DNA from: Patescibacteria group bacterium
GTDB taxonomy: Bacteria; Patescibacteriota; Minisyncoccia; Minisyncoccales; RBG-13-36-15
Reading direction: 5' to 3'
Assembly (NCBI GenBank): GCA_022574775.1
Contig: JACZRI010000002.1
Span: 74,303-138,302 of the forward strand
DNA length: 64,000 bases
Part shown: positions 7,825-57,130 of the stretch, piece by piece
Layout of the letters: each line of letters opens with the position of its first letter
Numbering within the stretch: the first letter of the stretch is position 1
The notes under the pieces: generated by a model
Database searches by the model: none
Seen by the model: the letters and a program-made list of their open reading frames with translations, nothing else
What the model was told of the DNA's origin: nothing
Position numbers and translations under genes: made by a program

Positions 7825-8649
7825 TTATTCCACTTTCAAACTCCCTTCCATGCCTCCCTCTCGATGCCCGGGAACTGCGCAGTAATACTTAAAAGTACCT
7901 GATTCGGTTGGGGTAAATTCAACTGTTGCAGAGCTTCCTTGAAGTGGAACGTTCACGCCAAGTTCATCAATCGTAAAAGTATGCGTTCCGCTGTTGCTGA
8001 AAACAATCTTTACAGGCTGATCCTTTATCAGAATAAGATCTTTTGGATTAAAGAACAAATTGCCTGAAACCATACTAATTTCTTTTATTGATGAAGCTGT
8101 TTTCTCAATAAAATTACGAATTTTCTGCTCATTAAAGCTATCTAAAATTTCTCGTTTGCCGAGCCTGGTTAAAATAATTTTGCCATCATAGTTATTTGGC
8201 GCAAGATACACATTTTTTGGATATTGTTTTACTAAATCGGTTAATCTTTCTACTAAATCTGTCTCGCAATCAAATTTATCACAGTTGTACTGGATGATAA
8301 TTCCGGGCTTCCCACCGCCATCGGCATGCTCAAGCATATGTTGCTGAATATTTTCTGGTATTCGTTTATCCAAGATATGGCTTGGCGGAGATTGTTCGAT
8401 ATGGCCCTGCATTGTCATGGGCGGTAGATTGGAACGGTTTGCAATAAACCAACCGAATAGTCCAATTACTCCAACGCCAATAAAGATATAAAAAAAATAC
8501 CGGCTGATTTTTTTCGGCGCTTCACTTAATTTTTCTTTTCTTCTTTCTCCTTTCTTTGTTTCTTCTCTCTGTTTCTTTTCCAAATCGTATAATTCTTTCC
8601 CACTCAGCTTTTGTTCAACTGATTTTTTATTTTGTTTCAACTCTTCCAT
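7825..8649 (-). CDS. membrane-anchored DUF3105-like / cupredoxin fusion protein
   Basis: TM anchor, a central HMLEHADGG...IIQYNCDKFDC region (DUF3105-like), and a C-terminal plastocyanin-like copper site YYCAVPGHREGGMEG. Confidence 0.7.
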   Translation of the reverse strand: MEELKQNKKSVEQKLSGKELYDLEKKQREETKKGERRKEKLSEAPKKISRYFFYIFIGVGVIGLFGWFIANRSNLPPMTMQGHIEQSPPSHILDKRIPENIQQHMLEHADGGGKPGIIIQYNCDKFDCETDLVERLTDLVKQYPKNVYLAPNNYDGKIILTRLGKREILDSFNEQKIRNFIEKTASSIKEISMVSGNLFFNPKDLILIKDQPVKIVFSNSGTHTFTIDELGVNVPLQGSSATVEFTPTESGTFKYYCAVPGHREGGMEGSLKVE

Positions 8650-9498: not shown

Positions 9499-9528
9499 GG
9501 TGCGGGGTTCGAACTAGAACCCCGCACC
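9499..9528. other. perfect 12-bp GC-rich hairpin
   Basis: GGTGCGGGGTTC-GAACTA-GAACCCCGCACC, between the DUF362 stop and the dsbA-like start. Confidence 0.7.
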
Positions 9529-12045: not shown

Positions 12046-12118
12046 TTTATAAAATGGTTCTTACACATCAAGCGCAATGTATGCCATAGATTTTAAAAGT
12101 TTTTTTAATCATGATACG

Positions 12119-12393
12119 TAAGAGTACAAGGTTCGAACCAGAATAAATTGAGCGGAGCGAATTCAGGTAAGATTCGAGGCGCGAGGAATGACGCGATGCC
12201 AAAGTGCATCGTAAACGACGAGCAACAAAGAAGCTTACCTGAATTCACCCGCCTGAAGGGAAACTGAAAAATGGCTGATTTCTTTGTTGCTCCTCCTTGA
12301 AGTAGTTTCTAACTACTCCTTTGTCGTCGCGTCGCGAAATCACCTCATTTTTCAGTTTCTCAATCTGATTTTGGTTCGAATCCTGTACTCTTA
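12119..12393. repeat. GC-rich 275-nt rod-like palindromic element, copy A
   Basis: Termini TAAGAGTAC...GTACTCTTA with GGTTCGAACC next to each end. Nested inverted repeats include GAATTCAGGTAAG/CTTACCTGAATTC and GAAACTGAAAAATG/CATTTTTCAGTTTC. Colinear with copy B at 16502-16766. Confidence 0.85.
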
Positions 12394-12479
12394 AGCGCAA
12401 CTTGCCCCGCACTCTGAGTCAGACTCGGTGCCGCAGAGTGTATTCCATGAATTTTATATGTTTCTTTTTTCATTAACGC

Positions 12480-13172
12480 TTAAACAATCCAGGTTAAAAT
12501 TATAAGTATAGTGTAAACGCTTATTCCCAATAAAAAATATTCTGATCTTCCTTTAGCTTCTCTTGGGATAAAATCCATGATGACGATATAAAAGAAAGCC
12601 CCGATGACAAAAGCTAAAAGAATATGGTACAAAAAAGCATTTTCTAAAATCACTGAAGCTGAAAGTACTCCAAGAAAAGTAGCTAAAGTTAATAATATCC
12701 TGAAAAATTTTTGTTCGCGGATATGGACGTGGACTTCAACGAAAGAAACTCGGCTGACTGCCGCATAAAACAGTACTGGCATAAAAAGCAATAAACCATT
12801 GAAAATGCTTAATTTTAAGAAATCAACTAGAATAATTCCTATAATGAAATAGTACAAAAAGAAAATAAAAAAATGGATTTCTTTAAATCTAAAAAGACGT
12901 TCTTCTCCGGCAGTATGCTGATAAAAATATTTTTCTAAAACATGTATTAAACTGAATCCTAAAAGAATAAAGATAAATATCCATTGATTAATACTTGCCA
13001 CGCCTTTGTAAAGATCTGGTAAAAGATATAAAAAAACATAAGCTACCGAAGCACCGGCCACAAAAGACATTGTTTTGGCTTTTATCGTTTCTCTCTTAAA
13101 AAATATCTTTTCGTTCCAGAAATGAATCGCCCCTAAAAATAAACTGAAAAAAATAGCAATTAGCGCAGGCAT
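12480..13172 (-). CDS. polytopic membrane protein, weakly ZIP-transporter-like
   Basis: 230-aa hydrophobic ORF. The C-terminal GAFFYIVIMDFIPRE resembles the ZIP-family terminal helix. Weak call. Confidence 0.45.
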   Translation of the reverse strand: MPALIAIFFSLFLGAIHFWNEKIFFKRETIKAKTMSFVAGASVAYVFLYLLPDLYKGVASINQWIFIFILLGFSLIHVLEKYFYQHTAGEERLFRFKEIHFFIFFLYYFIIGIILVDFLKLSIFNGLLLFMPVLFYAAVSRVSFVEVHVHIREQKFFRILLTLATFLGVLSASVILENAFLYHILLAFVIGAFFYIVIMDFIPREAKGRSEYFLLGISVYTILIILTWIV

Positions 13173-13993
13173 AATTGTTTAGTTTCTTCTTGAAGTTTTC
13201 GGGTAATATTTGACTGAAGGCCAGTTAATCGAACTAAATCGTGGAGGGAATATTTTAATAAATCTTTTGCTAACACAATTCTTTTTTTGGCAAGCATTTC
13301 TTTGGCATATTTAGTAAGCGAGGGTAAAATAGTGATGGGATAAAGCCCCTTTTTCTCAATTAAGCACTCTAAACTTTTATCTTTAGGATAACGCCAGCTA
13401 ATAATTTTTAACCCGGCACAACGAGCATAGCGAATTGCTTCACTTGTGCATTTAGTATTAGTTACCAACCAAGCCTGATGGAAAAAGTATTGATGGCCAG
13501 GCTTCTTTTCCCAAGCTTTTTTAACATCCAAAAATCTGGCATAAACATAAAGAGCTACTTTTACATCTGAACGGATGCCTCTGTTATTGTGATATTTGCA
13601 CTCAATCATAAAGTGTTTCTTTCCTTTTCGGACTACAACATCAATTTCGTGGCTAATACAATATCCTTTCACTATGCTTCCTACTTTTGTAGTATAGCCA
13701 TATTCTTTTAAAATCTCGGCAATATATTTTTCAAAAAGAAAACCTGCCGGTCCTAATTCCATTATAGCTCTTTTTAGATTATAACGAGCAGCCAAGATAG
13801 GATTTTCTTCTTGAAGACATTTCGTAGTTTGATCCAGAATTTCCCCTGAGTTCATTCCATGACGAATACTCTTTGCTACGGTTTTACAAACTTTTCCTGC
13901 CAATTTTGGCTGAACCCCAGCTCTTTTCAATGATTGATAAAGCTTTACCTTATTAAATTTTTCTTTTTCACCAGAAGCTTTTATTATATCCAT
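13160..13993 (-). CDS. ATP-cone domain / restriction-endonuclease-like (Mrr_cat-type) protein
   Basis: MDIIKASGEKEKFNKVKLYQSLKRAG (ATP-cone-like) followed by HEIDVVVRKGKKHFMIECKYH, a PD-(D/E)xK-like core. The track ORF extends to 14026. Confidence 0.65.
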   Translation of the reverse strand: MDIIKASGEKEKFNKVKLYQSLKRAGVQPKLAGKVCKTVAKSIRHGMNSGEILDQTTKCLQEENPILAARYNLKRAIMELGPAGFLFEKYIAEILKEYGYTTKVGSIVKGYCISHEIDVVVRKGKKHFMIECKYHNNRGIRSDVKVALYVYARFLDVKKAWEKKPGHQYFFHQAWLVTNTKCTSEAIRYARCAGLKIISWRYPKDKSLECLIEKKGLYPITILPSLTKYAKEMLAKKRIVLAKDLLKYSLHDLVRLTGLQSNITRKLQEETKQLCLR

Positions 13994-14072
13994 ATTACTG
14001 CTACTTTTTGGAAAACGCCGCGGCAAAATAAGCCCTTACTTTTTTCTGTATTGAATTTAATCCATCCACGAC

Positions 14073-14342
14073 TTATTTCTTTTTTGATAATTTATAAATT
14101 TCTAAAATTTCTTTGGCAGATTTTAACTTTTTGCCAGCCTTAATTTGCTCAATAACATAAGTTGATAGATGGTTCTCCAAAATTAAATCTTCAATGCTTG
14201 ACAGCGCTTGTTTTGCTGCTAACGACTGGTGAATAATATCTATACAGTATTTTTCTTTCTCAATCATTTTTTGAAGCCCTCTAATCTGACCTTCCAAAAT
14301 CTTTAATCTGTGTATTGTCCTATTTTTTATATTTTTTTCCAT
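14073..14342 (-). CDS. CsoR/RcnR-family metal-sensing transcriptional repressor
   Basis: 89-aa DUF156 pattern: LKILEGQIRGLQKMIEKEKYCIDIIHQSLAAKQAL. Confidence 0.85.
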   Translation of the reverse strand: MEKNIKNRTIHRLKILEGQIRGLQKMIEKEKYCIDIIHQSLAAKQALSSIEDLILENHLSTYVIEQIKAGKKLKSAKEILEIYKLSKKK

Positions 14343-14372
14343 ATGGAACGATAGAAAAGAACTGTGCTTTCA

Positions 14373-14393
14373 TAATACCCCTTAGGGGTATTA
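14373..14393. promoter_or_regulatory. CsoR-type operator palindrome
   Basis: TAATACCCC-TTA-GGGGTATTA, 30 nt upstream of the csoR-like start. G/C-tract inverted repeats of this kind are the known CsoR operator style. Confidence 0.7.
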
Positions 14394-14495
14394 CTATCAA
14401 CCTACCTGTACTGGCTGTGGTTATTCACAATAATGAACACTTCTTAGTTTTTATAGCAGTTTTTGCCGCTTATATTAGGATTCTGATACATCCAC

Positions 14496-14524
14496 TTGCA
14501 AGATGATGAGATATATACTATACT
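14496..14524 (+). promoter_or_regulatory. sigma-70-type promoter of the RRM gene
   Basis: TTGCAA, 17 nt, TATACT. Implies a 5' UTR of about 160 nt. Confidence 0.55.
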
Positions 14525-15067: not shown

Positions 15068-15162
15068 ATCCAGTTTATTGTCAAAAAAATCTGTATTCTA
15101 TCATACCCCGCATCCTCTTCCACCTCACCTTTCAGCTTCAGAGAAAGTATGGGGCTTGGCTC

Positions 15163-15191
15163 TTGACAAATTTGAAGTATGGGTGTACAAT
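15163..15191 (+). promoter_or_regulatory. near-consensus sigma-70 promoter of an orphan mini-transcript
   Basis: TTGACA, exactly 17 nt, TACAAT. Confidence 0.6.
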
Positions 15192-15300
15192 GGGGATAGT
15201 ACAAAAGAAAGGAGGAAAACGGCTATGCAAGTACTGTTCTCACAGTTTAAATAGTAGCTCAACGGCGCCGTGACCTGGCAAGTCGGTAAACTGCCAAACA

Positions 15301-15338
15301 AGGGGCTCCCATCTATTGACGGAGCCCCTTTAACTTTT
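15301..15338 (+). terminator. terminator of the orphan mini-transcript
   Basis: AGGGGCTCC-loop-GGAGCCCCT followed by TTAACTTTT. Confidence 0.65.
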
Positions 15339-15424
15339 CTTAAATCTTAATTTCTGTCTCAAAATTGAGGTAATTATCTTGATAAAGCTATAACTTCCTC
15401 AAACTCTATGGGGTGACAGGCTAA

Positions 15425-15466
15425 CCTCCATCTCTCAAGCTGATTCTGTTTCAAATCCTGTACTCT
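15425..15466. repeat. degenerate right-end fragment of the rod-like element
   Basis: CCTCCATCTCTCAAGCTGATTCTGTTTCAAATCCTGTACTCT aligns to the right end of copies A and B. A second fragment, CACCTCACCTTTCAGCTTC, lies at 15121-15139. Confidence 0.6.
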
Positions 15467-16474: not shown

Positions 16475-16501
16475 AAAGTTATTTAAATGTTTAAGAGTAC
16501 A

Positions 16502-16766
16502 GGGTTCGAACCAGAGTCAATTGAGCGGAGCGAATTCAGGCAAGATTCGAGGCGTCGAGGAGTGATGCGATGCCGAAGCGCATCGTGAGCGACGAGCAAC
16601 AAAGAAGCTTGCCTGAATTCACCCGCCCGAAGGGAAGCTAAAAAATGGCTGATTTCTTTGTTGCTCCTCCTCGAAGTAGTTTCCAACTACTCCTTTGTCG
16701 TCGCGTCGTGAAATCACCTCATCTTTCAGCTTCTCAAGCTGATTTTGGTTCGAATCCTGCACTCCT
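16502..16766. repeat. GC-rich rod-like palindromic element, copy B
   Basis: Colinear with copy A. Carries paired substitutions that keep the stems (CAGGCAAG/CTTGCCTG versus CAGGTAAG/CTTACCTG; GAAGCT/AGCTTC versus GAAACT/AGTTTC). Confidence 0.85.
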
Positions 16767-17110
16767 GACACTAATTATTAGTATAAAGGCGGAAACGAGA
16801 ATCGCAAATGTAATAATGCCGACATTAATTTTAAAAAAATCCTTATAAAAAGTTCGTTGAACGGCGGTCAGAGAAATTCTTAGAATAAACATGCCTTTGT
16901 AATTTGGTTTTAGTTCTTTCATGTTTATTATTAGATTTATAATATCATTAATTAAAATAATACTCTATAATCTGGGCATGGAATTCGAAACACCAGAATA
17001 ATTCACATATATTTATTATTCGTTCTTTTTAATTTTTTTTGCTTGCCCAGTTGCAAGCCGACCTGCCCTGCAGAGAAAGTCGCGCAAAAGATGAGTAGTT
17101 ATTCCTTATT

Positions 17111-18742: not shown

Positions 18743-19414
18743 TTATCCTTTTTTAATTGCTTCACAAAGATAAGAAATAGAGCTTAATTTAATAATTTTT
18801 ATATTTAACCCTGCTTTATTAAAAATCTTTTGTAATTTTCGTTTAGAAAATTGTTCCGTAATTATACCTTCCTCGGTAACAACTGTGCCGTCTTTACTGG
18901 TTTTCTCTAATTTCATTCCAGCTTTTTTATACTCTTTTAATCTTATTGGCAGTGCTTTTTCTGAATATACGCTAATGATTATTCTTCCACCCTTCTTAGT
19001 TACTCGTTGCATCTCTTTTAATATCTTAAGCTTATCCTCTCCAAAATCTCCAAATGTGTTCCCCATACAAATGGCATAGTCAAAAGTATTATTTTTAAAA
19101 TGCAGCCTTTGAGCTTCTTCAAGAAATACTTTTACATTCTTAAATTTTGATAAACTTTTCTTAATCTCTTTAAATAATCTCTTATTATTATCAATTCCTA
19201 TAATTTTTTTAGCAATATTTGCAATTGCTTTTATGTTTCTTCCTATCCCGCAACCTACATCTAAAACAATTGAGTCTTTTTTTATATTCTTTTGTAGATA
19301 TAAATTCTCTTTCTTAATCCAGCTTCTTATTGCTGGAGAGTGGCTTTTTACAACCTTCTTCCAGTATTTCAATATAGCTTCTTTTGATTCTAATTTTTGA
19401 TGGTTTTTATGCAT
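18743..19414 (-). CDS. class I SAM-dependent methyltransferase
   Basis: Motif I VLDVGCGIGRN and the post-I acidic residue pattern. Confidence 0.85.
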   Translation of the reverse strand: MHKNHQKLESKEAILKYWKKVVKSHSPAIRSWIKKENLYLQKNIKKDSIVLDVGCGIGRNIKAIANIAKKIIGIDNNKRLFKEIKKSLSKFKNVKVFLEEAQRLHFKNNTFDYAICMGNTFGDFGEDKLKILKEMQRVTKKGGRIIISVYSEKALPIRLKEYKKAGMKLEKTSKDGTVVTEEGIITEQFSKRKLQKIFNKAGLNIKIIKLSSISYLCEAIKKG

Positions 19415-19425
19415 TGTTTTATCTT

Positions 19426-19530
19426 ATCAAAAAACCGCCTGCTTGGCGATTTTCTGAAGCTAGCTCCCCCTACTGGACGCGTTCAGAACCATTGATTGGA
19501 AGAAAGTTAAAAGAGATTTGGAACCAATTA
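19426..19530. repeat. methyltransferase-array repeat module c1
   Basis: A-run/hairpin (CCGCC..GGCG) followed by the core AGCTAGCTCCCCCTACTGGACGCGTTCAGAACCATTGATTGG. Confidence 0.75.
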
Positions 19531-19586
19531 TGAGTATTTATCTGACTCCGTCTACAAGACGAAGTTAGAATTTATTTGGTAGGAAA

Positions 19587-20414
19587 TTACTTTTGACAAA
19601 CATACATAAAAAAGTCAGCTTCTGGATTATATCCTGGTTGATAATCACTATACTGCTCTATTTTTGAGAACCCAGCTTTTGTCAATAATTTCTGCATCTC
19701 ATCTCTCCTGAATGGATAAAGAATAAGATAACCTTTTTTACCTGTTGCCTCCTCGGTATACTGGAATTTCACATATTCATCAGTTATCTCAATTGGTCGT
19801 CCGTGAACTTTCTCACCACAGTAAACATATTTACCACTGTAATAAAAATTACCTTTAAGGATTTCTTTACGGTTATCCAGTATATACTGATAGTTTCGTT
19901 CATCAATAATAAGAATGCCGCCAGGACGGAGAATGGAACGAAATTGTTTTAGAACTGTTATCTGGTCAGACTGAATGAATAAATAAGTGAGTGAGTTCCC
20001 CAGACTCAAAACTGCATCAAAAGATTCTTTCTCAATCTCCTTATCAAGTTCTCTCCAATCAAGTTTTGTTACTTTGAGTTCAACTCCTTCTCTTTGAGTA
20101 TTTTGCAGACCTTTTTTAAGAAAAACTTTATCAATTTCATTGGCGGTTACATCAAAACCTTCTTTCTGAAGGAAAATAGCATCACAACCATCCCCAAATG
20201 AACTCTCAAAAACTTTATGACAATTATACTTCTTAAGTTGATTGACTAACCATCCATTCTCTCCTTTTCTCCTCTTACCCCAATCAATATAATCTCCCCA
20301 TATCTCGGTAAGAACTTTAGAGTTGTAATTCTCTGAAATAATACCTTTTATCTTGCGAAAAGGAAGAGTAACTCTACGCTTTCGAATGAAATCAGGAATT
20401 TTAAATCTTTTCAT
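19587..20414 (-). CDS. SAM-dependent methyltransferase, glycine/sarcosine N-methyltransferase-like
   Basis: The region LRPGGILIIDERNYQYILD resembles the GNMT/GSMT family. Substrate assignment is uncertain. Confidence 0.65.
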   Translation of the reverse strand: MKRFKIPDFIRKRRVTLPFRKIKGIISENYNSKVLTEIWGDYIDWGKRRKGENGWLVNQLKKYNCHKVFESSFGDGCDAIFLQKEGFDVTANEIDKVFLKKGLQNTQREGVELKVTKLDWRELDKEIEKESFDAVLSLGNSLTYLFIQSDQITVLKQFRSILRPGGILIIDERNYQYILDNRKEILKGNFYYSGKYVYCGEKVHGRPIEITDEYVKFQYTEEATGKKGYLILYPFRRDEMQKLLTKAGFSKIEQYSDYQPGYNPEADFFMYVCQK

Positions 20415-20530
20415 AAAATTTAATATATGAATTATAGTAAATATTTTACTTTAAAATTATCATTTTTCACTAAGAAAGTAAAGCAAAAAAAACTGTCCAG
20501 TGATTGGTTTTTTCTAATTTAACTTGGTAA

Positions 20531-20643
20531 AGCAAAAAACAGGACTTTTGGCCCTGCTTTTGCTGTCGAGCTCCCCCTATTGGACACGTTCAGAACCATT
20601 GATTGGGGTAAGATGAGAGAAGAATTGGAGGAATTAAGATTTG
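20531..20643. repeat. methyltransferase-array repeat module c2
   Basis: Core GAGCTCCCCCTATTGGACACGTTCAGAACCATTGATTGG preceded by an A-run/hairpin. Confidence 0.75.
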
Positions 20644-20654
20644 TTTTAGGATTT

Positions 20655-21335
20655 TTAAAAGGAGATATGAATTATAGCAAAATGTGGGGTTAAAAACTCA
20701 TTAACCACCTTTCCACCAAAATAGCTTTTTATTTCCTCTATCTCATCCGAAGTCCACCATTTTGATTGATAGCCAGTTTTGCTTCTAAATATACCTCTTT
20801 CAAAGTCTATATTCTCTAAATCTGGCTCTCCTGTCATTTCTTGAATTGCTGTATAGAATCTCATCCCATAATCTTTTAAAACTTCTTGACGTAATATTGA
20901 AATTATAACTTCACCCTGATATTTTTCAGCCACTGACTTTGTTTCGGAAAGCACCTTTTTGTAATCACCTTCTATTGTGCCAAGAGTATTTTGAATTATA
21001 AGTAAAACTGGATTTTTAACATCTCCTTTTTCTAATAATTTTGACAATCCTTGAATATCCCCTCCTATTGCTGTAGCGTTTTTATACATTTTTGTTCTTC
21101 TTTCAAGCTCTGCTATCATATCTGGGTTAATATCTATTGAGATAACATTTCTCGCAATCTTTACTAAATCTGGAAGGACTCTACCATATCCCGCTCCCAA
21201 ATCAATAAAGGTTTTATTCTTTGAATCTTTAACCTTACCTATTACATCCATTTCAGCTCTCTGCCAGGATTGAAAAACAGGGTCATCTATCTTTTCAACT
21301 AATTCTATATATTTTTCTGAGGTGTATTTTCTCAT
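20655..21335 (-). CDS. class I SAM-dependent methyltransferase
   Basis: Motif I FIDLGAGYGRV. No obvious similarity to the two neighbouring methyltransferases. Confidence 0.7.
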   Translation of the reverse strand: MRKYTSEKYIELVEKIDDPVFQSWQRAEMDVIGKVKDSKNKTFIDLGAGYGRVLPDLVKIARNVISIDINPDMIAELERRTKMYKNATAIGGDIQGLSKLLEKGDVKNPVLLIIQNTLGTIEGDYKKVLSETKSVAEKYQGEVIISILRQEVLKDYGMRFYTAIQEMTGEPDLENIDFERGIFRSKTGYQSKWWTSDEIEEIKSYFGGKVVNEFLTPHFAIIHISF

Positions 21336-24000: not shown

Positions 24001-25203
24001 CTAGTATTCTTTCAACTTTTTCAATCCTTTGTGCTCCCTGATTTTTTCCAGAGACTTGGCCTCAATCTGCCTAATTCTTTCTCTGGTTACACCAAATTCA
24101 TTACCAACCTCTTCTAAAGTATGAGTTATTCCATCTTCCAAGCCAAACCTCATTTCTAAAATCTTTTGTTCTCTCGGAGCCAAGTCAACCAGAATCTCTT
24201 TCATTCTTTCTTTTAGTAAAGCTCTTGCTGCAACCAAAGAAGGCGACACTTCTTTTTTATCCTCAATAAATTCAGCTAGAACGCTGTCTTCATCGCTATC
24301 CCCGACTGGAGTTTCCAAAGATACGGTTTCCTGGGAAATTTTCATTATATGATGTACCTTACCAAGCTCAATGCCCATTTCAGCGGCAATCTCCTCTGGT
24401 AATGGATCCCTTCCCAAATCCTGCAGCAACCTTCTCCTTGCTTGACTGTATTTTGAAATAGTTTCCACCATATGGACTGGGATTCTGATAGTCCTTGCCT
24501 GATCAGCTAAAGCCCTCGTGACTGCTTGTCTAATCCACCATGTTGCATAAGTTGAAAATTTATATCCCCTCCGCCAGTCAAATTTTTCAACTGCCCGGAA
24601 AAGACCAAGGTTTCCTTCTTGAATTAAGTCGAGCAAAGTTAAATTTGGAGATCTTCCAACATACCTTTTTGCAATAGAAACCACTAATCTTAAGTTAGCC
24701 TGGGCTAAGGCTTTCTTCGCCTCCTCATCCCCTTTCTCGATTTTCTTTGATAATTCTTTCTCTTCAGCCGCAGTTAAAAAAGAAACTTTTCCAATTTCTC
24801 TTAAATACATCTGAATTGGATCAATTTTTTCATCTATGGTTCTGCGCGTAACAGCAGGAACTTCTTCCACATCAAGAAATTCTCTTACCTCCTTAAGCTT
24901 AATTCCCTTTCTCTCCAAAATATCATAAAGATTTTCCAAACCATCTATGTCTCTTTCTATTTCTGGAAATACTGATAAAATTTCAGAAAAAGTTAAAAAT
25001 CCCCTTTCTTCGCCTTTTTTAATTAATGGTTGAATCATTTCAGGGGTGACTATTTTTTTCTTAAAATGGGGCCGTTTTACGCTTTTCTTTTTCTTTATTT
25101 TTCTTTTCCGCTTCTTCTTGAGTTTTTTTTTCTGAACAATCTTCCTTGCTGTTTTTTTCTTCACTCGTTTTATCTTTTTTTTCGCTTTTTTGTTTTTTTT
25201 CAT
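24001..25203 (-). CDS. rpoD: RNA polymerase sigma factor RpoD (sigma-70)
   Basis: Regions 1.2-4 are recognisable ([50 protein letters not shown]). Lysine-rich N-terminus. Confidence 0.95.
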
Positions 25204-27101: not shown

Positions 27102-28151
27102 ATGAAAATCTTACAAATAGCGCCTCCTTGGATACCAGTTCCCCCCATTACATATGGCGGAACAGAATTAGTTATTTCCTGGCTGACCGAAGAATTAGTG
27201 CAAAGAGGGCACGACGTTACCCTTTTGGCCTCGGGAGACTCCAAAACCTCGGCTAAACTCATTCCTATCTGGCCTAAATCACTCTGGCGAGCGAATCTTT
27301 CAACTCCCCATGCAGTTTTTGCTTTGATTTATGAAAAATTAGCTCAAATACAAGAAGAATTTGATATCATTCACGACCACTGTGAATTCTATACCGCCCC
27401 GTTTTTTCCCTTACTAAAAAAACCTCTGGTTTCCACCATTCATCATCCAATGTACGAGGAACTCATAATTTTATTCAAGAAATTCCCCCGAATACATTAT
27501 GTGGCAGTTTCTAAAAACCAGAGGAAATCTGCTCCTGGAGTAAATTTTGTCAAAACTATTTATCACGGCTTGCCAATTACGCAATACCCCTTCAACCACA
27601 AACCTCAAGATTATCTTTTATGGCTATCAAAAATATCGCCTGGAAAAGGACCTGCTGAAGCCATAGAAGTTGCAAAAAAGGCAAAGGAAAAACTGATTAT
27701 TTCTGGAAATATTTTGAAAGAGTATGGAGATTATTTTGAATACAGACTGAAACCCTTAATTGATGGAAAGCAAATTCAGTTTGTTGGAACGTCAGATTTT
27801 GAGAAAAAAATTGAGCTTTTTAAAAATGCCAAAGCCTTTTTATATCCTGTCAGAAGACCAGAGCCATTCGGTTTAGTTGTGATTGAAGCAATGGCCACAG
27901 GCACCCCGGTTATTGCCTACAAAACGGGCGCGATGTCAGAGCTTATCAAAGATGGAAAAACCGGCTTTTTGGTTAATAATCAGGAAGAAATGATAGATGC
28001 TTTAAAGAAGATAAATAAAATTGACAGAATTGACTGTCGGAGGCATGTCGCAAGAAAATTCTCTCTAAAAAAAATGGTGAATAAATACGAGGCTCTTTAC
28101 AATACTATTTTAAAAGATTCTAAAAAAAATAATCATGAGAAAAAAACTTAA
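27102..28151 (+). CDS. GT4-family glycosyltransferase
   Basis: N-terminal GGTELV and a C-terminal EPFGLVVIEAMATGTPVIA...G.TG motif, characteristic of retaining GT-B GT4 enzymes. Confidence 0.9.
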   Translation: MKILQIAPPWIPVPPITYGGTELVISWLTEELVQRGHDVTLLASGDSKTSAKLIPIWPKSLWRANLSTPHAVFALIYEKLAQIQEEFDIIHDHCEFYTAPFFPLLKKPLVSTIHHPMYEELIILFKKFPRIHYVAVSKNQRKSAPGVNFVKTIYHGLPITQYPFNHKPQDYLLWLSKISPGKGPAEAIEVAKKAKEKLIISGNILKEYGDYFEYRLKPLIDGKQIQFVGTSDFEKKIELFKNAKAFLYPVRRPEPFGLVVIEAMATGTPVIAYKTGAMSELIKDGKTGFLVNNQEEMIDALKKINKIDRIDCRRHVARKFSLKKMVNKYEALYNTILKDSKKNNHEKKT

Positions 28152-28166
28152 AATTGCACAAATCTT

Positions 28167-28305
28167 CGCTTCGCCAAGTCTAACTTGGTTTCGCTCCCCA
28201 GACACCTCTCGGTTTCTGGCTCTCCTTCGCTCCCGCTCAGTCGCTGTTTTCCTACACGGGAAAACACCCAGTTTTCCCGACCCCTTTCTGCAATTTGGGC
28301 AATTA
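28167..28305. repeat. GC-rich hairpin element, copy in the GT1/GT2 junction
   Basis: Contains GGGAAAAC-ACCCA-GTTTTCCC (28258-28278) and is colinear in reverse orientation with 50895-51000. Flanked by duplicated GT2 5' ends (28135-28163 and 28368-28396). Confidence 0.75.
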
Positions 28306-28367
28306 ACTAAGTTTTTATATCACTTAATAATTTTTAATTTAGGGATTATTAAATATTCAAAAAAAAT

Positions 28368-29438
28368 ATGAGAAAAAAACTTCGAATTGCCCAAATTGCC
28401 CCTTTATGGTTTGCCATTCCTCCGAAAAAATATGGAGGAATTGAAAGAATTGTCTCATTTTTAACAGAAGAATTGGTAAGAAGAGGTCATGATGTAACTC
28501 TATTTGCCTCTGGCGATTCAAAAACGAAGGCGAAACTAATTTCGGTTTATCCGGAATCTTTAATAAAAGCTGAATACAACTGGCAAGATCCAGTGTGGAA
28601 TTTAGAAAATTTATCAGAAGTTTTTAAAAAAGCAAACGATTTTGATATTTTGCATTCTCATCTAGATTTCTGGACTTTGCCATTCCAAGATTTAACTAAA
28701 ACACCCGTCCTGCATACTTTACATAATCAACTTTATAAAGCATCTATAACTAGAGAAGGTGAAAGGAAACCGGCCAGAATTCAAATCTTTGAGAAGCACA
28801 AGAAAGAAACATCGGCTGTTTTTATTTCTAAGTCACAAAGGTTAAAATCGGCTGTAAAATTTCCTCAAAGCTGGATAATTTATAATGGAATAGATATCTC
28901 TAAATTTAAATTTAATCCAAAACCGCAGAATCATTTTATCTGGATTGCGCGAATTGATCCCTTTAAAGGAATTGAGAATGCAATAAGAGCTGCGGAAATT
29001 ACCGGAGCAAAATTATTATTAGCCGGCAGACTTGATCCAAATAAAGAGGAATATTTTAAAAAGAAAATTAAGCCTCGCCTTTCAAGGAAAATTAGATACG
29101 TAGGAGAATTAAGCCAAAATGAACTTTCTGAGTTCTATGGGTCAGCTCGAGCCCTTCTTTATCCCATTGAATGGGAAGAGCCATTCGGATTAGTAATGGT
29201 GGAGGCTATGGCTTGCGGTACTCCGGTAATTGTTTTTGACCGAGGATCTGCCAAAGAAGTAGTTAAAAACGGCGAATCCGGTTTTGTAGTTAAAAATATA
29301 GAGGAAATTGTAAAAGCAATGAAAAAAGTTGATCAAATTGATAGATTAAAATGTAGAAAAAGAGTAGAAAATCATTTCGCTTACCAAAAAATGGTTTCAA
29401 AGTACGAAAAACTTTACTATAAACTTATAAAAAAATGA
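28368..29438 (+). CDS. GT4-family glycosyltransferase
   Basis: EEPFGLVMVEAMACGTPVIV...GESGFVV motif. Confidence 0.9.
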   Translation: MRKKLRIAQIAPLWFAIPPKKYGGIERIVSFLTEELVRRGHDVTLFASGDSKTKAKLISVYPESLIKAEYNWQDPVWNLENLSEVFKKANDFDILHSHLDFWTLPFQDLTKTPVLHTLHNQLYKASITREGERKPARIQIFEKHKKETSAVFISKSQRLKSAVKFPQSWIIYNGIDISKFKFNPKPQNHFIWIARIDPFKGIENAIRAAEITGAKLLLAGRLDPNKEEYFKKKIKPRLSRKIRYVGELSQNELSEFYGSARALLYPIEWEEPFGLVMVEAMACGTPVIVFDRGSAKEVVKNGESGFVVKNIEEIVKAMKKVDQIDRLKCRKRVENHFAYQKMVSKYEKLYYKLIKK

Positions 29439-30532
29439 AGAAGCTTCGAATCGCCACAATGATAACTGGTCGCTATACTTGTCCTCCACCCAAAGGGGTA
29501 ATTTACGCTCCTATGGTAATTGCGAAAGCCATAGTTGAAGGATTAGTAAAAAGAGGACACAAAGTATTTTTCTTTGGTCCGGAAGGTTCAAATTTAAAGG
29601 CGACTAAAATAATTTCTGGGGGCATGAATCCTCTTTATGGCAAAAAAGAGCATGAAATTCTTCAAGGTCCGATGATTCGAGAAAAAGAAAGGGAGAAGAT
29701 TAAAAATTTATGGGACCAATATTTAATTTCCTTAATTTATCGAGAGGCTCTAAAAGGAAAGTATGACTTAATTCATATCCATCCAGTAGATAGAGTTTTA
29801 CCTTTTAGCCTCGCCTTTGAAAATATTCCCGTGGTTTATACCCTCCATGACCCTATTTATCCTTGGAGAAGAGATATTTTTCGAATGTTTCAAAGTAAAA
29901 ATCAATATTTTGTTTCTATTTCTAATGCTCAAAGAAAACCAGCTCCTGATTTAAACTGGATAGCAACAATTTATAATGGTATCGATTTAAAGTATTTTCC
30001 TTTTAAGCAGAAACCGAAAAACAAAACTTTATTTTTAGGAAGAATTTTGCCGACTAAAGGAACAGATATTGCAATTCAAGCGGCTAAGCTGGCTAAAGTA
30101 AAACTAATCATTGCAGGTAGCCCAAATAGAGGAGATTTCTGGGAAAATAAAATTAAACCTTTTTTAGGAAAAAACATTCAATATATTGGCAACGTCCCTT
30201 ATCAAAAAACTTATGAATATTATGGAGAATCCAAGGTAAGTTTATTTCCAATTCAGTGGGAAGAACCTTTTGGTTTAACTTTTGTTGAGTCAATGGCTTG
30301 TGGAACTCCAGTCATTGCTTTTGATAGAGGTTCAGCCAAGGAAATAATTAAAAACGGCGAAACTGGGTTTGTAGTAAAAAATTTGAGAGAAATGGTAAAT
30401 GCGATAAAAAAAATTGGTCAAATAGACCGAAGAGAATGTAGAACGTGGGTAGAAAAAAAATTTCCGATTGAAAAAATGGTTGATGAATACGAAAGAATTT
30501 TCTTTGAAATTTTAAAGAAGAAAATTAAGTAA
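29435..30532 (+). CDS. GT4-family glycosyltransferase
   Basis: EEPFGLTFVESMACGTPVIA...GETGFVV motif. ATGA overlap with the upstream gene. Confidence 0.9.
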   Translation: MKKLRIATMITGRYTCPPPKGVIYAPMVIAKAIVEGLVKRGHKVFFFGPEGSNLKATKIISGGMNPLYGKKEHEILQGPMIREKEREKIKNLWDQYLISLIYREALKGKYDLIHIHPVDRVLPFSLAFENIPVVYTLHDPIYPWRRDIFRMFQSKNQYFVSISNAQRKPAPDLNWIATIYNGIDLKYFPFKQKPKNKTLFLGRILPTKGTDIAIQAAKLAKVKLIIAGSPNRGDFWENKIKPFLGKNIQYIGNVPYQKTYEYYGESKVSLFPIQWEEPFGLTFVESMACGTPVIAFDRGSAKEIIKNGETGFVVKNLREMVNAIKKIGQIDRRECRTWVEKKFPIEKMVDEYERIFFEILKKKIK

Positions 30533-50894: not shown

Positions 50895-51055
50895 AGAGAG
50901 GGGTCGGGGGAACTGGGTGTTCCCCGTGCAGGAAAACAGGCTCGAGCACTCAACGGCTTAAGTGCTCGAACGTTAGAAACCGTGGGTGTCTAAAGAGCGG
51001 TGTTAGTCCCGAATTAAAGTCGGGACGTGCCGCGACTCGGGCATGATTAAGTCCT
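50895..51055. repeat. GC-rich hairpin element, copy in the uvrA/trxB divergent intergenic region
   Basis: GGGGAAC-TGGGT-GTTCCCC (50907-50925), then TCGAGCACT...AGTGCTCGA and GTCCCGA...TCGGGAC hairpins. Colinear with the copy at 28167-28305. Confidence 0.75.
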
Positions 51056-57026: not shown

Positions 57027-57130
57027 AAATATAAAGCTGAAATGATAAAAAGGCAGAAAAGGGTTGGGGAAACTGGGTGTTTCCCCATAGCGGAAATATT
57101 AAAACCGAAGGGTTTTAAGGAGTAAAACGA
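57027..57130. repeat. GC-rich hairpin element, short copy at the secG 3' end
   Basis: GGGGAAAC-TGGGT-GTTTCCCC (57066-57086). Flanked by 41-bp direct repeats at 56986-57026 and 57131-57171 (one mismatch) that duplicate the secG 3' end. Confidence 0.8.

Follow-up and report, generated by a model that had tools for sequence, protein, structure and literature searches.

We identified a family of intergenic repeats in Patescibacteria, about 275 bp long, that can fold into a four-way junction, and compensatory changes across the family support the conclusion that this fold is under selection. With moderate confidence, we think the family is a non-coding mobile repeat, a structured element with features of both MITEs and REPINs, whose folded DNA would be recognized by a trans-acting protein.

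The window, by which we mean the whole 64,000-nt stretch of Patescibacteria DNA that was analyzed, holds two full-length copies, A and B, and a 34-nt remnant, fragment C (Table 1). The + strand of copy A is the orientation of the family, as defined by the HMM. An earlier reading of the window, made from the sequence only, had proposed two full collinear copies on the + strand, and these are present, 91–91.5% identical with 23 differing positions. As that sequence-only reading also stated, both have a higher G+C content than the DNA around them (0.438 versus flanks of 0.314 for A and 0.498 versus 0.399 for B, in a window of 0.368). It had placed the start of copy B at 16502, 27 nt from the trxB-like gene. 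The copy begins 10 nt earlier, at 16492 (TAAGAGTAC), and thus lies 17 nt from the start of that gene; the spacing of 73 nt given for copy A and nth is correct. Both genes are on the minus strand, with copy A upstream of nth and copy B upstream of the trxB-like gene. The 3´ terminus of copy B has diverged (GCACTCCTG).

Table 1. Coordinates of the repeat copies, their parts, and other features of the window
Feature	Coordinates	Strand	Remarks
Copy A, full length	12119–12393	+	HMM 272 bits forward, 61 bits reverse
Copy A, TA flank, left	12119–12120		no strand
Copy A, P1 5´ strand	12121–12151	+	terminal stem / terminal inverted repeat
Copy A, arm 1	12152–12252	+	hairpin module with C-G / tandem G·A core, well formed on +
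Copy A, central junction / mini-hairpin P3	12253–12259		CTGAAGG; no strand
Copy A, arm 2	12260–12359	-	same module inverted; tandem G·A core well formed on -
Copy A, P1 3´ strand	12360–12391	+
Copy A, TA flank, right	12392–12393		no strand
Copy B, full length	16492–16767	+	HMM 289 bits
Copy B, left flank	16492–16493		TA
Copy B, P1 5´ strand	16494–16524
Copy B, arm 1	16525–16626
Copy B, P3	16627–16633
Copy B, arm 2	16634–16733
Copy B, P1 3´ strand	16734–16765
Copy B, right flank	16766–16767		TG
Fragment C	15433–15466	+	34-nt remnant, P1 3´ strand only
Strain-specific island	~12113–14500		copy A and three genes; about 90 nt in L126
Segment from RRM-protein gene to fragment C	15120–15452		~330 nt; 22 nt in L126
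Hairpin between two minus-strand genes	9499–9528		near-perfect
Second small repeat family	28259–28277	-
Second small repeat family	50907–50925	+
Second small repeat family	57067–57085	+
Second small repeat family	24597–24615		weak match
Tandem sets of three paralogous genes	18743–21335; 27102–30532		methyltransferases; glycosyltransferase-like proteins
GIY-YIG protein	42209–42490	-	93 aa

The differences between A and B include three double changes that keep a base pair and about eight one-sided changes. Two of the double substitutions had been read from the sequence and are genuine: CAGGTAAG/CTTACCTG versus CAGGCAAG/CTTGCCTG corresponds to alignment pair 58-141, and GAAACT/AGTTTC versus GAAGCT/AGCTTC to alignment pair 170-277. 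The third, beyond those examples, is pair 84-110. The leftover stem mismatches of A and B, several of which had been read as A·C on the + strand, are indeed of this kind in most cases. Taken alone, A and B give only thin support for the fold; what truly supports it is the wider family.

Fragment C was found as direct-repeat family D7, 18 nt downstream of the trxB-like gene, and has a more degenerate counterpart in L126, a close, syntenic relative with 90–94% DNA identity to the window. The segment that reaches from the RRM-protein gene to fragment C is missing in L126. Direct-repeat families D1 and D3 are explained by the two tandem sets of paralogues. The window also carries a second small repeat family, consisting of a hairpin core GGRAAACTGGGTGTTYYCC with about 45 nt of common flank (AAAAGGCAGAAAAGGGTTGGGG...), which looks REP-like or terminator-like; four matches were found against 0.12 expected by chance. 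A near-perfect hairpin elsewhere in the window, GGTGCGGGGTTC-GAACTA-GAACCCCGCACC, has the GGTTCGAAC motif of P1 and is otherwise unrelated.

A metagenome scan with one exact 21-mer from arm 2 matched at least 120 loci, and an HMM built from 14 seed sources gave strong matches in at least 98 sources among the matches listed, counting 95 metagenome loci, three genome loci, and the window. The HMM is polar, with scores of 250–295 bits forward versus 20–80 bits in reverse, the reverse match spanning the full length. The three genome loci, found by scanning GTDB genomes with the terminal motif, belong to a Candidatus Azambacteria MAG, a Patescibacteria MAG, and a MAG labeled Gammaproteobacteria (a 15.5-kb contig), and the nearest named homologues of the nth gene of the window come from Minisyncoccia, Paceibacteria, Wolfebacteria, and the Parcubacteria group, which makes the host a CPR bacterium. 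The repeat occurs in many metagenome samples, one of which is named for a Hainich well. An origin in phages or plasmids was rejected, as BLAST against phages and plasmids and three scans of viral-contig collections found nothing similar.

The element is small and has no conserved ORF, as expected of a MITE, and its apical loops differ in length by steps not divisible by 3. Only one ATG recurs in the family, that of MADFFVAPP..., a small ORF that we rejected: the search pattern itself includes this ATG, L086 has lost it, and the position of the stop varies.

For covariation, we used 58 non-redundant full-length members with a median pairwise identity of 70%, aligned by MAFFT with no fitting to a structure. 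The members were fished with one 21-mer in arm 2, so that the diversity of the family is under-sampled and conservation around this 21-mer is inflated and should be discounted. The cells of the alignment are phylogenetically dependent on one another.

Both strands of A and B, described earlier as nested inverted repeats, indeed fold far better than their shuffled counterparts, as RNA (-111 to -125 kcal/mol; z of -7.2 to -10.5; 0 of 200 shuffles) and as DNA (-62 and -65 kcal/mol; z of -8.2 and -9.4). The same branched shape is predicted on both strands, as DNA and as RNA. Rather than the rod that had been proposed, it is a four-way junction, in which the closing stem P1 (31–32 bp) surrounds two independent hairpin arms of about 100 nt and a central mini-hairpin, with almost no unpaired bases at the junction. 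The rod fold, and with it the pairing of GAGCAACAAAGAA in arm 1 with TTCTTTGTTGCTC in arm 2, was rejected because the alignment holds no covariation that links arm to arm; the likeness of these two segments is due to the inverted homology of the arms.

Across the 58 members, RNAalifold assigned 89 pairs, 68 of which have compensatory double changes, compared to 44 ± 2.5 in shuffled alignments and 26–37 when partners were slid. The further copies thus bear out the covariation first suggested by two. Paired cells make up 94.8% of the observed alignment, versus 81.0 ± 0.3% after shuffling and 36–45% after sliding, and the covariation score is 0.409, versus 0.160 and 0.046–0.082. None of 500 shuffles reached the observed values for pairing or covariation.

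P1, which provides the terminal inverted repeats expected of a MITE, is represented in the alignment by 27 pairs that are 94.6–99.6% paired. It covaries as strongly as the arms; the terminal inverted repeat thus has no fixed sequence, and the presence of the GGTTCGAA box is incidental. This box pairs with its own complement in P1 and is variable across the family; the GGTTCGAACC box pointed out next to the termini is likewise not a conserved feature of the family as a whole. We rejected a tRNA-like reading of the GGTTCGAA(T)CC boxes, given that ARAGORN finds no tRNA at the element, Rfam is equally empty there, and the flanks form no T-stem. The mini-hairpin between the arms is 7–11 nt long, usually with 2–4 bp and often with a C-GNA-G triloop. 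Conservation is highest at the junction (TCAATTGAGCGG, CCCGCC, GGGAAGC, and CTTCTCAA) and in the cores of arm 1 (AGGCGYGAGGAG and GAGCGACGAGCAACRAAGAA) and arm 2 (GTTGCTCCTCCT and TTCGTCGTCGCRCC), and these interior cores are better conserved than the termini.

The two arms are inverted copies of one imperfect hairpin module of about 100 nt: the consensus of arm 1 on the + strand and the reverse complement of the arm 2 consensus are collinear and identical at 48 of 84 positions, mostly in the core. Each copy of the element is a pseudo-two-fold palindrome, and either DNA strand can therefore form the same four-way junction. While the stems of the module covary freely, its core is nearly invariant and forms a zipper, in which single C-G pairs alternate with tandem G·A/A·G mismatches. 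At pairs 74-123, 75-118, 77-116, and 78-115 of arm 1, 46–51 of the 58 members have G·A or A·G, with covarying or conserved C-G/G-C pairs between the mismatches (73-124, 76-117, and 79-113). Arm 2 has, on the + strand, three tandem T·C/C·T steps between single C-G pairs (36–55 of 58 members), and these pyrimidine steps become tandem G·A when read on the minus strand. At the first step, 13–15 members have Watson-Crick pairs instead, which indicates that the mismatched bases of arm 2 face each other in a helix. Some members exchange CTCCTCC and CGTCGTC between the sides of arm 2, and their + strand is still pyrimidine-rich. In DNA as in RNA, tandem sheared G·A pairs are stable beside C-G pairs, a stability that mismatches between two pyrimidines lack.

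Wobble pairs divide in the same way. Leaving out the four columns in which G·U is conserved when read on the + strand (81-112, 84-110, 85-109, and 196-250), arm 1 has 54 G·U versus 25 A·C (p = 0.0015), arm 2 has 13 versus 39 (p = 0.0004), and P1 has 41 versus 29, which is not significant; the overall counts, 108 G·U versus 93 A·C, are near parity. The bias showed no correlation with the direction in which neighboring genes are transcribed. Together, the opposite G·A cores and wobble biases suggest that each arm is optimized on the strand that runs 5´ to 3´ inward from its own end. Copies A and B had hinted at the minus strand as the one that folds, but this does not hold for the family, in which arm 1 favors the + strand and arm 2 the minus strand.

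These properties bear on whether the selected form is DNA or RNA. Copies are all intergenic, in any orientation, and often within 0–30 nt of ORF ends. Among the 35 with both neighbors called, 21 lie between co-directional genes (15 antisense and 6 sense), seven between divergent genes, and seven between convergent genes, which is roughly what random intergenic insertion would give. Since most are between co-directional genes and so close to ORFs, many copies must be co-transcribed with their neighbors. The main rival to our reading is that the element is selected as an RNA, produced by mRNA read-through or by its own transcription, with the fold acting in cis or in trans, for example, by affecting how stable mRNAs are or how they are processed, or by serving as a protein sponge. 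Proposals of this kind have been made for bcr1, ERIC, and Correia elements, and the two-fold design would let such an RNA work in either orientation of insertion. The strong covariation would suit this model, as would the conserved + strand G·U pairs of arm 1 and of pair 196-250, and bcr1 has been reported to be transcribed, with its compensatory changes read at the level of RNA (PMC3184786). However, any single transcript of the element would bear tandem pyrimidine mismatches in one arm, and the split between G·U and A·C follows the arm and not neighboring transcription. The element also contains no internal sigma-70 promoter or intrinsic terminator, its loops are not enriched for GNRA or UUCG, and seven of the 35 copies lie between divergent genes. 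At the gathering score, Rfam 15 finds only three tRNAs in the whole window, all elsewhere, and at E ≤ 10 only chance miRNA or UTR matches of 15–17 bits; no family matches the element, and we rejected known RNA families, ribozymes, and riboswitches on these grounds. The RNA half of the sequence-only reading thus gains no specific support from Rfam, promoters and terminators, loop motifs, or wobble counts, and we consider selection on an RNA rather unlikely.

The lack of promoters and terminators, the copies between divergent genes, the loops, the split of the wobble pairs by arm, and the pyrimidine mismatches lead us to favor recognition of folded DNA at each end, by analogy with the logic proposed for REPINs and RAYTs. 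In this mechanism, a trans-acting protein encoded elsewhere in the genome would recognize each end of the element as folded single-stranded or cruciform DNA, and would copy or move the element into intergenic TA sites. Selection for continued mobilization, perhaps together with host tolerance, could then preserve the fold and the core. We infer DNA, and not RNA, as the selected form, along with the existence of a protein partner and the transposition chemistry.

As no partner protein was found, the recognition step is a deduction. In the window and the fetched loci, we found neither a transposase nor a RAYT, nor any autonomous element that shares the termini, and neighboring genes are not enriched for transposases. 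RAYT (Y1 HUH) is absent from the 25 most frequent Pfam families of 150 neighboring ORFs and of 66 window ORFs. Two candidate partners were set aside. The 230-aa protein beside copy A, which is hydrophobic and of the membrane, has no equivalent in the neighborhood of the other copies. A GIY-YIG nuclease is represented by a single stand-alone protein 30 kb away (Table 1); homologues are found in the element-bearing loci L089, L104, L009, and L086, and it is probably a common CPR gene that is not tied to the element.

The case for selection on a fold had been framed as a folded RNA or ssDNA rather than a MITE. The first part stands, but the choice is a false one because the element also acts as a mobile intergenic repeat. 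Its gene context differs at each of the at least 98 sources. The neighbors are ordinary housekeeping genes, such as those for IF-1, NDK, RuvC, TsaE, SOD, and L20, and an association with a neighboring gene family was rejected. Copies amplify within contigs: A and B are closest to each other (91.5%, with no other member above 81%), and the pair of copies in L046 is 96% identical. Insertions are polymorphic, with empty sites found at three loci in related genomes. L126 lacks copy B (...AAATGTT-TA-TGCGTG... versus ...AAATGTT-TA[AGAGTAC...GCACTCC]TG-ACAC... in the window), L100 is empty at the locus occupied in L079, L058, L025, and L094, and L046 is empty at the locus occupied in L091. TA is at the junction of all three empty sites and is enriched on both sides of the element (left in 26 and right in 22 of the 58 members). 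No filled allele keeps a clean TA...TA, the flanks being AA/CA, AA/AT, and TA/TG, and a target-site duplication of TA on insertion is therefore likely but not proven. A composite transposon with A and B as its ends was rejected, since L126 lacks B yet keeps the genes between the copies; also against it, the island missing from L126 has a copy at one side only.

Several derivatives were found. L093 has a member without exactly arm 1, L068 (1914–1960) a remnant consisting of P1 only, with both arms gone, and L065 (3853–4017) the same P1 around a different interior of about 95 nt. Half elements abut opposite-strand tRNA genes in L044 (~8130–8330) and L075 (25–290), one meeting the 3´ end of the tRNA and the other the 5´ end. 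In L045 (1640–1895), and also in L025, L094, L049, L034, and L066, a long hairpin of about 250 nt takes the place of the arm 2 apex, which may reflect either an expansion of the arm or the nesting of a second palindromic element. L079 and L058 have the same locus without this hairpin, with flanks that are 99–100% identical. The 3´ strand of arm 2 in L025, L027, and L100 carries a 25-nt hairpin insertion, CAGTAGAATGACCTACCGGGTCATT, flanked by a TCATT direct repeat, which looks like growth of a palindrome by template switching.

An ordinary MITE, moved by an IS630/Tc1- or IS5-type DDE transposase that reads the duplex termini only, would leave TA flanks and TA at empty sites, and could give rise to the L065 element and the arm-less derivatives. 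The interior would then be functionless, and its hairpins and compensation a by-product of the homogenization of palindromes by template switching or gene conversion, with which their growth by small hairpin insertions would agree. Homogenization, however, would erase mismatches, yet these are kept in 42–55 of 58 members despite the 70% median identity. A transposase that ignores the interior also fits poorly with cores that outconserve the termini, with the covariation of the terminal sequence itself, and with the significant and opposite wobble biases of the arms, and neither the window nor the fetched loci yielded a cognate IS. We regard this explanation as improbable.

Copy A lies at one edge of a strain-specific island that is absent from L126, and whose three genes encode the 230-aa membrane protein, an Mrr_cat/ATP-cone nuclease-like protein, and a CsoR-like repressor. 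The position of copy A at the edge of these 2.4 kb would be in keeping with a host-domesticated DNA site, a cruciform or four-way junction serving chromosome biology, for instance by being bound or cleaved by a junction-specific protein, by signaling priming on each strand, or by acting as a recombination hotspot at the border of variable islands. The conserved core and a junction nearly without unpaired bases would fit such a role, and identical modules on opposite strands resemble paired single-strand initiation sites. The ssiA and ssiB sites of RSF1010 are paired in this way on opposite strands. A domesticated site is nevertheless difficult to square with non-syntenic positions, with copies that come and go between close relatives, with the many degenerate remnants, and with the lack of an associated gene, and we think it very improbable.

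CPR/Patescibacteria genomes are small, streamlined, and thought to be poor in repeats. In such genomes, a multi-copy repeat that is so deeply conserved and so highly structured is surprising ballast, and it could be a functional module. It is possible, though we put this forward only tentatively, that the (C-G)(G·A)(A·G) zipper hairpin is an undescribed recognition module for a structure-specific ssDNA or cruciform enzyme, or a bidirectional RNA domain conserved across the radiation. If so, an enzyme would propagate a long-lived, vertically persisting replicator throughout Patescibacteria, in a partnership like that of REPINs and RAYTs with a different fold, and possibly with a new family of transposases or nucleases. 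The conserved tandem G·A hairpin offers a handle for finding a partner protein by pull-down or phylogenetic profiling, and the size and diversity of the family suffice for building a covariance model, and hence for an Rfam- or Dfam-style entry. At least 14 elements are truncated by contig ends, and a sister assembly of the window locus stops at copy A. By breaking assemblies and bordering a strain-specific island, the repeat bears on the quality of MAGs and on genome plasticity in CPR.

Among known systems, bcr1 is reportedly covered by Økstad in 2004 and by Klevan in 2007. Like the element described here, bcr1 has a closing stem, two stem-loops, compensatory changes, and an intergenic location. 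It is an intergenic non-coding repeat of the B. cereus group with a non-conserved genomic distribution, whose closing stem and two independent stem-loops form a "cruciform-like" structure kept by compensatory changes (PMC3184786). By this description, our element is an analogue and not a member. It is about 275 bp long, has TA flanks, and occurs in Patescibacteria, whereas bcr1 is about 155 bp, has 5-bp direct repeats, and is found only in the B. cereus group; unlike those of bcr1, the arms here are inverted copies of a module with its tandem G·A core on opposite strands.

REPINs, in which an inverted palindromic doublet is one replicative unit, are intergenic and persist for long periods, compensatory changes keep their folding, and a two-hairpin "clover" fold has been proposed as the form recognized as ssDNA during mobilization by RAYTs (PMC3116915). 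Our element similarly joins two inverted palindromic units into one foldable unit. REP units differ from our modules in being 20–40 nt long, in bearing GTAG/CGTC tags, and in having no outer terminal inverted repeat; here, units of about 100 nt lie within P1, and the family alignment has no conserved GTAG or CGTC at the foot of a stem.

ERIC and Correia (NEMIS) elements are small, ORF-less, imperfect intergenic palindromes with terminal inverted repeats and 5´-TA-3´ on both flanks, and their insertion sites differ between related strains (PMC3184786). The TA flanks and the palindromic, ORF-less design are common to these elements and ours. They form a single long hairpin of 100–160 bp in one family or genus, in contrast to a four-way junction in diverged Patescibacteria whose interior outconserves its termini.

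Covariation of stems, with hairpins near the ends, is also a point of likeness to PATEs. In PATEs derived from IS200/IS605, folded ssDNA hairpins close to the ends are the recognition signal, and stem covariation is expected. The ends of IS200/IS605 lack a terminal inverted repeat, and the top strand is the one on which both of their hairpins function, unlike the long terminal inverted repeat and the arms biased to opposite strands that we find.

The element belongs to none of bcr1, ERIC/Correia, or REPIN, from which it differs in size, host, flanks, tags, and sequence, and our search of the literature on CPR repeats, MITEs, structured RNAs, and the core sequences found no such CPR repeat described. 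In kind, it is a bacterial structured intergenic repeat, and it represents a new family. What stand out against the known systems are the four-way junction, an interior that outconserves the termini across a diverged radiation, and a G·A zipper on opposite strands.
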